Positions 20,957 to 46,257 of a DNA stretch of 64,000 bases are shown here, one piece after another. The translations under genes and the position numbers were made by a program. The stretch lies in the NCBI RefSeq assembly GCF_988243305.1, contig NZ_OZ547136.1. One strand, given 5' to 3'. How positions within the stretch are numbered: the stretch's first letter is position 1; each line of letters starts with the position of its first letter. The notes beneath the pieces are model-generated. The model was not told where the DNA came from, did no database searches, and saw nothing but the letters and a program-made list of their open reading frames with translations.

Positions 20957-21055
20957 CTACGGCGCATTGCCGACGACCACCACCACACGCACGACGACCA
21001 CTGCGGCGGATGGCGCAGTTGGTAGTAGTTTTGCGTTGAACATGGAAGTAGTCAT
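20957..21055 (-). CDS. ivbL: ilvB operon leader peptide
   Basis: Hand translation of minus strand: MTTSMFNAKLLPTAPSAAVVVVRVVVVVGNAP* (32 aa, Val/Leu-rich control codons). Confidence 0.85.
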   Translation of the reverse strand: MTTSMFNAKLLPTAPSAAVVVVRVVVVVGNAP

Positions 21056-21184
21056 TGGGGACCTTGTTGGTTTTGTGTTTAACAATATTTATACAAGCAC
21101 AGCTTTACAGGGGAGACAATGGAAAATTTTTCAGCAAGGGAAAATTGAGGGGTTGATCACGTTTTGTACTGAATTGCAGGTAAC

Positions 21185-21335
21185 AAAAAACCCCGCCGGA
21201 GCGAGGTTTCGTCAGTCGCCTGCGGCTGGTAACCGCAAAGCACACTGTATTATGTCAACACTGAAAGTATACGTGTTCCGCGCAGAACGCGCAATTTCGG
21301 CACGAATTTTGACGTATTTAGTGCATAGTTGAGTA
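21185..21335 (-). ncRNA. istR: istR antitoxin sRNA region (IstR-1/IstR-2), approximate
   Basis: Position divergent from and upstream of tisB, next to the LexA box; terminator-like hairpin ccucgcuccggcgggguuuuuu at ~21182..21206 on the minus strand. Boundaries inferred from the known locus layout, not from sequence identity. Confidence 0.4.
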
Positions 21336-21365
21336 TCGATCACAGTTTGCGTTTTGTCTAAATAT

Positions 21366-21385
21366 TACTGTTTATTTATACAGTA
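21366..21385. promoter_or_regulatory. LexA box (SOS operator) of the tisAB/istR-2 locus
   Basis: TACTGTTTATTTATACAGTA: perfect CTGT-N8-ACAG palindrome ~235 nt upstream of tisB. Confidence 0.7.
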
Positions 21386-21619
21386 AACTTCTATAATATC
21401 ACTGTACGCAATGTGTTATGTGGGGGCCGCATCGTTACCCGGCGCACTAAGTCCTGGCTGAAACGGGTGGTGCCGTCAGCGCCTTAACCCCGCGTGAGCA
21501 CACTGTGTTATGTCAACAAGCACAACGTTTCTCCTTGAGATACCGCGTGCACAACAGCTGGCAACAGGCAGCGGAAAGGTACGTCAGCTGGCAGTGCTCC
21601 TGAACCACAGGAGACGCGT

Positions 21620-21709
21620 ATGAGCCTGGTGGATATCGCCATTCTTATCCTCAAACTCATTGTTGCAGCACTGCAACTGCTTGATGCTGTTCTGAAATAC
21701 CTGAAGTAA
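21620..21709 (+). CDS. tisB: SOS-induced type I toxin TisB (small membrane peptide)
   Basis: Hand translation MSLVDIAILILKLIVAALQLLDAVLKYLK* (29 aa); too short for the ORF track; followed by an intrinsic terminator. Confidence 0.85.
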   Translation: MSLVDIAILILKLIVAALQLLDAVLKYLK

Positions 21710-21730
21710 TTCAGATTCAAGTCGCACTAA

Positions 21731-21758
21731 AGGGGAGCGGGTAACCGCTCCCCTTTTA
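21731..21758 (+). terminator. tisB intrinsic terminator
   Basis: AGGGGAGCGGgtaaCCGCTCCCCTTTTAT hairpin plus T-run. Confidence 0.65.
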
Positions 21759-21988
21759 TATTTAGCGTGCGGGTTGGTGTCGGATGCGATGCTGATGCAT
21801 CTTATCCGCCCTACCATCCCTCCCGGCAACATTTATTGCCGCTTTTGTTTACATATTCTGCCGCTAAACAATTCCCCATTCCTGGCGTATATCTGGCTAA
21901 CATTTATCAATGTGATAGATTCCTCTCCCGCATTTATGGGAATGCGTAGTGACTTATTCTAATTATTTTTATAAAAGCATCCGTGATA

Positions 21989-35583: not shown

Positions 35584-35997
35584 TTAGTTGATTTCGATAC
35601 GGCGCGGTTTTTTCGCTTCCGGAATCACGCGTTCGAGATCGATATACAGCAGACCATTCACCAGGTTAGCGCCACGAACATGAATGTTCTCAGCTAACTG
35701 GAATTTGCGTTCAAAGTTGCGTTCAGCGATGCCCTGGTACAGATAGGTGCGCTCTTTTTGTTCGTCGGCGTGAGCACCTTTCACCACCAGCAGATTATCC
35801 TGGGCGGTAATTTCCAGTTCGCTCTCAGCAAAACCAGCCACAGCGATAGCAATGCGGTAATGGTTTTCGTCTACCAGTTCAACGTTATACGGAGGGTAGC
35901 CGCCATTACTCTGGCTCTGGTTGTTTTCTAAGTGGTTAAACAAACGGTCAAATCCAATAGCAGAACGGTAAAGCGGGGATAAATCAAAGTTACGCAT
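35584..35997 (-). CDS. ibpA: Small heat shock protein IbpA
   Basis: Start [19 protein letters not shown] gives 137 aa; alpha-crystallin domain. Confidence 0.9.
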
Positions 35998-36097
35998 AAT
36001 CAATAGCTCCTGAAATCAGCGAGAATGTAAGACCTTCCACAATGGACAGGTCAGGTAGCCAGAACACCCATCAGGCGCGTCCTCATCGGCTACGATG

Positions 36098-46158: not shown

Positions 46159-46257
46159 GCCGGATGCGGCGTTAACGTCTGATCCGGCCTACAAAATCAT
46201 GCAAATTCAATATATTGCAGGAGTCTCGTAGGCCTGATAAGCGTAGCGCATCAGGCA
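46159..46257. repeat. Pair of REP elements (BIME-like)
   Basis: gccggatgcggcgttaacgtctgatccggcctac and gtaggcctgataagcgtagcgcatcaggc in opposite orientation. Confidence 0.6.

Follow-up and report, generated by a model that had tools for sequence, protein, structure and literature searches.

In Escherichia coli K-12, the tisB/istR-1 locus encodes a toxin-antitoxin system of type I for which SOS-inducible toxicity, membrane depolarization, persister formation and neutralization by IstR-1 are all established (PMC2826370, PMC4147584, PMC9040746). The toxin, TisB, depolarizes the inner membrane and promotes persisters that are tolerant to ciprofloxacin (PMC2826370). At the RNA level, ribosome standby on the tisAB mRNA, its 5' processing, its inhibition by IstR-1 and its cleavage by RNase III to a +106 species have been documented in the same strain (PMC6690012, PMC4147584). 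Transcription of the toxin is under the control of a LexA box whose heterology index is reported to be lower than that of any other box of the LexA regulon, and from which LexA reportedly dissociates very slowly (PMC9040746). The system is always located between ilvB and emrD (PMC9040746).

Three other type I pairs of E. coli, dinQ/agrB, zorO/orzO and shoB/ohsC, resemble tisB/istR in that the toxin is small and hydrophobic, its mRNA has a long 5' UTR, and a divergent sRNA is complementary to this UTR and not to the RBS. Besides, dinQ is controlled by LexA, as is tisB (PMC4147584). However, these pairs belong to other toxin and sRNA families and occupy other chromosomal sites, while the DNA described here matches the TisB and istR models specifically.

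The tisB/istR locus between ilvB and emrD

We have analyzed a stretch of 64,000 nucleotides of DNA (the window), in which the gene order ilvB-ivbL-istR-tisAB-ysdE-emrD is the same as in E. coli K-12 MG1655, with the conserved ilvB-emrD site occupied by tisB/istR. A sequence-only reading of this DNA had proposed a complete tisB/istR SOS toxin locus composed of TisB, a LexA box and a divergent IstR terminator, and the three elements were found in place. The interval 21185-21760, which spans exactly from the 3' end of IstR to the end of the tisAB terminator, is almost certainly the tisB/istR-1 module of a non-B2 E. coli chromosome, a type I toxin-antitoxin locus that is intact and works as it does in K-12. 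Presence, integrity and near-identity to K-12 were observed for every sequence element of tisB/istR, while the regulatory steps and the phenotype are what we infer here, because the literature describes them for the identical K-12 sequence. The features are listed in Table 1, those of K-12 having been mapped with a fixed offset (window position = position in the K-12 excerpt + 20366).

Table 1. Features of the tisB/istR locus and its flanks, and substitutions relative to K-12 (positions in the window)
Feature	Position	Strand	Basis or remark
ilvB	19163..20851	-	
ivbL, ilvB leader peptide	20957..21055	-	
istR-2, long LexA-dependent sRNA isoform, 140 nt	21185..21324	-	K-12 b4616 by alignment, 140/140 identical
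istR-1, constitutive antitoxin sRNA, 73 nt as in the K-12 annotation	21185..21257	-	73/73 identical
IstR intrinsic terminator hairpin and U tail, common to IstR-1 and IstR-2	21187..21210	-	RNAfold, 10-bp stem, IstR-1 positions 48-71
Putative IstR-1 promoter	21266..21294	-	Read from the sequence; -35 TTGCGC (21294..21289), 17-nt spacer, -10 TATACT (21271..21266)
Putative istR-2 promoter	21332..21360	-	Promoter scan; -35 TAGACA, 17-nt spacer, -10 GATACT
LexA (SOS) box TACTGTTTATTTATACAGTA	21366..21385		Exact 20-mer, once in the window
Putative tisAB -10 hexamer TATAAT	21392..21397	+	Sequence; LexA box 7 nt upstream
IstR target and ribosome standby region, tisAB 5' UTR	21497..21518	+	Complementarity to IstR
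tisA ORF, 37 codons, in the tisAB transcript	21510..21623	+	ORF list
tisB Shine-Dalgarno AGGAG	21609..21613	+	Sequence; predicted base-paired
tisB CDS, 29-aa membrane-depolarizing toxin (Ser2 allele)	21620..21709	+	ORF list, K-12 mapping, family models
tisAB intrinsic terminator	21729..21760	+	Terminator scan; 12-bp stem 21729..21756, GTAA loop, T tail
ysdE	21833..21907	-	K-12 feature mapped
emrD	from 21989	+	
Substitution, T (K-12 C)	21359		Putative istR-2 -35 hexamer, TAGACA versus TGGACA
Substitution, T (K-12 C)	21421		Leader; U.G instead of C-G at one pair of the predicted +1 fold
Substitution, G (K-12 A)	21624		TisB Asn2Ser
Substitution, T (K-12 C)	21728		One base before the tisAB terminator stem
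Substitution, T (K-12 A)	21742		tisAB terminator loop; stem untouched

The corresponding locus of K-12 MG1655 (tisB/istR-1, b4618/b4616; NC_000913.3 3853118-3853642) has the same site and gene order. Both istR-1 and istR-2 are 100% identical between the two, and so are the LexA box, the IstR target, tisA, the tisB Shine-Dalgarno sequence and both terminator stems. MG1655 differs in carrying TisB Asn2, a C at 21359, a C at 21421 and two other bases in the terminator area, outside the stem. The alignment to K-12 had been suggested as a check on the locus, with divergence or deletion of istR as the outcome that would speak against it; we observed zero mismatches along IstR-2 (140 nt) and IstR-1 (73 nt), istR being neither diverged nor deleted. 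Judged by these comparisons, the locus is an already known one, at its standard site and essentially in its K-12 form, and the sequence contains nothing that contradicts an intact K-12-like module. It implies no new biology.

Regarding the toxin, the tisB ORF translates into the 29-aa protein that had been announced (MSLVDIAILILKLIVAALQLLDAVLKYLK). The ORF is full length, with no frameshift, stop codon or IS insertion at the locus. Two equivalog models of NCBIfam, NF011340 (69.9 bits, cut-off 53) and TIGR04459 (61.5 bits, cut-off 38), recognize TisB above their cut-offs over residues 1-29 of 29, and so does Pfam PF13939 (37.6 bits, cut-off 25), in which the best-matched stretch comprises residues 4-26.

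Regarding the antitoxin, cmscan gave a match to the Rfam istR family (RF01400) at 21185..21314 on the minus strand, which scored 150.1 bits (E = 1.2e-32; the gathering score is 45) and covered the whole model (1-130 of 130). The match was reproduced when the whole window was scanned against Rfam. IstR-1, originally described as 75 nt long, is predicted to fold into two hairpins (-32.5 kcal/mol, RNAfold). The second part of the earlier description, a divergent terminator hairpin consistent with IstR, agrees with a hairpin on the minus strand at the 3' end of the full-length Rfam match: it is G+C-rich, corresponds to the last helix of the istR model and also gave a match in the terminator scan (21202..21190). 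The putative IstR-1 promoter was placed relative to the K-12 5' end of IstR-1; it is identical to that of K-12 and had no match in the scan tools. The -10 hexamer of the putative istR-2 promoter ends 8 nt before the K-12 IstR-2 5' end (21324).

The LexA box had been called perfect. This is correct for its conserved arms, TACTGT and ACAGTA, but not for the whole 20-mer, which matches 18 of the 20 positions of the textbook consensus TACTG(TA)5CAGTA and has eight non-palindromic inner bases. The box is identical to that of K-12, and matches to TACTGTTTATTTATACAGTA with up to two mismatches are expected 0.01 times by chance in the window (shuffled sequence). On these sequence grounds, it would be the high-affinity LexA box of the tisAB promoter. 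The putative -10 hexamer next to it allows a tisAB transcription start to be placed, by position, near 21404. With +1 at 21404, the published +42 and +106 species would start at about 21445 and at 21509, respectively, and the tisB AUG would be at +217. This placement is consistent with the published data (PMC6690012), since the start of the +106 species would fall inside the IstR duplex, as predicted for a cleavage by RNase III.

The locus had also been described as a known type I toxin-antitoxin locus related to persistence, in agreement with the literature (PMC2826370, PMC4147584, PMC6690012), and as unannotated by callers that depend on ORF length. The latter does not hold in general: RefSeq/PGAP annotates tisB in all the tisB-carrying genomes among the matches listed. 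The K-12 record has an annotation for istR, but that of strain 118UI has none. A 29-aa toxin and an sRNA escape genome scans based on ORF length, and flagging both of them helps to annotate the locus correctly.

Pairing of IstR with the tisAB leader and translation of tisB

On the plus strand, the sequence at 21239-21260 is the same as that at 21497-21518 with the exception of one A/G, so that IstR can pair with 22 nt of the tisAB leader, one of the pairs being a G.U. The 5' end of IstR-1 in the K-12 RefSeq record (21257) leaves 19 of these 22 nt within the sRNA. A complementarity of 21 nt is given in the literature (PMC4147584), and would fit a 5' end located two bases further upstream. Counted from the tisB Shine-Dalgarno sequence, the target is 91-112 nt upstream, in agreement with the published standby site, for which a distance of about 100 nt upstream of the RBS is given (PMC6690012, PMC4147584). 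A much longer duplex of about 65 nt between IstR-1 and tisAB (RNAduplex, -73.5 kcal/mol) gave a hint of an origin of istR by duplication of the tisAB leader, and was dropped because its flanks are not significant: once the 22-nt core is set aside, they align locally with a score of at best 10, compared with a mean of 7.2 (sd 1.4) for shuffled sequences, and 66 out of 1000 shuffles reach 10.

We then predicted the structure of the +1, +42 and +106 mRNAs with RNAfold. The tisB Shine-Dalgarno sequence and the AUG are predicted to be paired in the three of them (P(unpaired) of 0.08-0.16), with a mean of 0.15-0.16 for the Shine-Dalgarno sequence. With the transcription start placed by position as above, the target region opens modestly, from a mean P(unpaired) of 0.38 in the +1 mRNA to 0.49 in the +42 mRNA. 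These predictions are consistent with the published standby model, but do not demonstrate it independently; the RBS comes out as sequestered, and the opening of the standby site is weak. The region from 21422 to 21623 is identical to that of K-12, in which both the sequestration of the tisB RBS and the exposure of the standby site in the processed +42 mRNA have been demonstrated experimentally (PMC6690012).

If the locus works as in K-12, LexA bound to the box at 21366-21385 would keep the tisAB promoter off, and heavy DNA damage would remove LexA and allow the synthesis of a tisAB mRNA from about 21404. This primary transcript would be translationally inert because the tisB RBS (21609-21613) is locked in structure. 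The loss of the first 41 nt would make a single-stranded standby site available at about 21497-21518, from which 30S subunits could reach the tisB start codon. IstR-1, expressed constitutively from 21257 to 21185 on the minus strand, would pair through its 5' end with the standby site, blocking standby binding and triggering a cleavage by RNase III that yields the inactive +106 mRNA. TisB would therefore be made only when the tisAB mRNA outnumbers IstR-1. Once produced, the 29-aa toxin would insert in the inner membrane and collapse the proton-motive force and ATP levels, leading to dormancy or persistence.

Differences from K-12 and the tisA reading frame

The interval 21185-21760 (576 bp) contains five substitutions with respect to K-12 (Table 1), none of them in istR and none obviously disruptive. 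The best database match, strain 118UI (NZ_CP032515.1), is 99.7% identical over 701 bp and shares with the window the TisB protein (WP_000060506.1) and the ATA start codon of ysdE, but has a C at 21359 and a G at the position where the IstR target ends (21518). The region around the Asn2Ser codon is present in 4358 genomes, and the 57-mer centered on this codon has an exact match in 3289 of them. Hence, Ser2 is the majority allele of TisB in E. coli, and the Asn2 of K-12 the minority one. The exact 57-mer at 21331-21387, which contains the T at 21359, was found in only 49 of 4296 tisB-carrying genomes. This T, located 6 nt from the LexA box and within the putative -35 hexamer of istR-2, is the sole mildly unusual detail of the locus. 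It is unlikely to have a functional effect, since one non-consensus base replaces another (TGGACA to TAGACA).

One could still argue that the locus is functional and tuned unlike that of K-12, the T at 21359, the U.G pair at 21421 or TisB Ser2 altering the induction threshold or the potency of the toxin. Apart from the rarity of the 57-mer at 21331-21387 (49/4296 genomes), the change at 21421 weakens one predicted pair of the inhibitory +1 structure (-80.7 versus -82.6 kcal/mol for the first 237 nt), and K-12, from which all the experiments come, carries the minority Asn2 allele. However, TAGACA and TGGACA each match five of the six positions of TTGACA and differ from each other only at a position that is already mismatched, and we know of no established antitoxin role for IstR-2. 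Moreover, the change at 21421 keeps a wobble pair and falls within the 41 nt that the active mRNA has lost by processing. As for TisB, the stretch best matched by Pfam (4-26) does not include residue 2, and Ser2 is what most natural E. coli carry. We consider a different tuning quite improbable, and give no more credit to its narrower version, in which the T at 21359 and the U.G pair of the leader could measurably shift the expression of IstR-2 or tisAB and, hence, the level of DNA damage at which this lineage enters TisB-dependent dormancy.

Within a module that behaves as in K-12, tisA could be thought to encode a second peptide, giving a module with two products. Indeed, tisA is an ORF of 37 codons with an ATG that begins within the IstR target region and overlaps the tisB start (ATGA at 21620-21623), a geometry that is typical of translational coupling. 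Against this, TisA gave no match in Pfam or NCBIfam, the ORF has no CDS annotation by PGAP and is no longer a CDS in the current K-12 MG1655 record, and the published mechanism rests on standby binding and not on the translation of tisA (PMC6690012, PMC4147584). We conclude that tisA is probably not a real gene, and the chances that it is translated into a second product are very slim.

Distribution among E. coli genomes and neighboring features

A 701-bp query across the locus was compared with 5426 complete E. coli genomes. It matches 5419 of them, with a query coverage of at least 80% in 4150, and the window is accordingly assigned to the E. coli chromosome. The tisB 57-mer is present in 4358 genomes and an empty allele in 1060 (~20% of the 5426); together, both states account for 5418 genomes, that is, nearly all of them. 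Around 80% of the complete E. coli genomes thus carry the locus, and the window shows the intact majority state. Since about 20% of these genomes are devoid of the locus, its intact presence here bears on the prediction of fluoroquinolone-induced persistence. This presence/absence polymorphism has already been published: phylogroup B2, E. albertii and Escherichia clade V lack tisB/istR (PMC9040746).

An example of the empty ilvB-emrD allele is that of the O2:K1:H4 strain APEC E19019, which has the same flanks (ivbL, ysdE and emrD). These align to the window up to ~21133-21185 on the left and from ~21802 on the right, and istR and tisAB are missing in between, with about 150 bp of mostly unrelated sequence instead (2533..2690 of its excerpt versus 21133..21802). 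The right half of the LexA box appears to persist in the empty allele in a degenerate form (ATACAGCGTAAAC), and the right boundary of this allele is at a REP-like element. That the locus in the window is complete in looks only, a decaying and non-functional remnant, is the least credible explanation and extremely unlikely: the locus is dispensable and polymorphic (empty or replaced in 1060/5426 complete genomes, with independent losses in B2, E. albertii and clade V; PMC9040746), but all its functional elements are intact, with istR identical to K-12 in 140 of 140 positions, tisB full length and above the equivalog cut-offs, the LexA box, target site, Shine-Dalgarno sequence and terminators unchanged, and no frameshift, stop codon or IS insertion.

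Some other features were observed in the flanks of the intact module. The REP-like palindromic element (…GTCGGATGCGATGCTGATGCATCTTATCCGCCCTAC…) occupies 21770..21812, directly 3' of the tisAB terminator, and gave a weak match to naRNA4, below the Rfam gathering score. The start codon of ysdE (21905-21907, minus strand) is ATA in the window, with a T at 21905 on the plus strand, while it is ATG in K-12 (C at 21905) and in the APEC strain. The exact 57-mer around the ATA start is found in 813 of 5418 genomes, O157:H7 included, in which ysdE nevertheless has a PGAP annotation. If YsdE, for which we found no Pfam or NCBIfam match, is a real protein, its translation is probably reduced by this minority allele. 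On the other side of the locus, an SNP at 21040 gives IvbL a Phe6 (MTTSMFNAKLL…) in place of the Leu6 of K-12; the residue does not belong to the Val-rich and Leu run of control codons, and Phe6 is common to strains 118UI and APEC.

Several weak Rfam matches near the locus (Termite-leu, STnc310, P6, naRNA4, RsmY and RRE) were rejected as generic hairpins far below their gathering scores. The Termite-leu match is on the antisense of the tisB terminator, and those of STnc310 and P6 correspond to a hairpin at 20874-20942, downstream of ivbL, which is probably the attenuator terminator of ilvB.

Further away in the window, an ORF of 727 aa (56914..59097, minus strand) matches Pfam PF07906, the N-terminal domain of the ShET2 enterotoxin, with 158 bits. 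A second SOS box of the type CTGT-N8-ACAG at 58391 was discarded; it lies within this ORF, and chance alone would give 0.61 sites of this type. The ORF is located about 5 kb from a match to AsdA, the antisense RNA of dnaA (51712..51792, plus strand, 101.9 bits, above the Rfam gathering score), and K-12 presumably lacks a gene with a ShET2 domain in the AsdA/dnaA neighborhood. Finally, a ROSE_2 RNA thermometer (35991..36063, minus strand, 100.4 bits) and the ES036/CssrF sRNA (46193..46235, plus strand, 56.9 bits) were also detected above their Rfam gathering scores.
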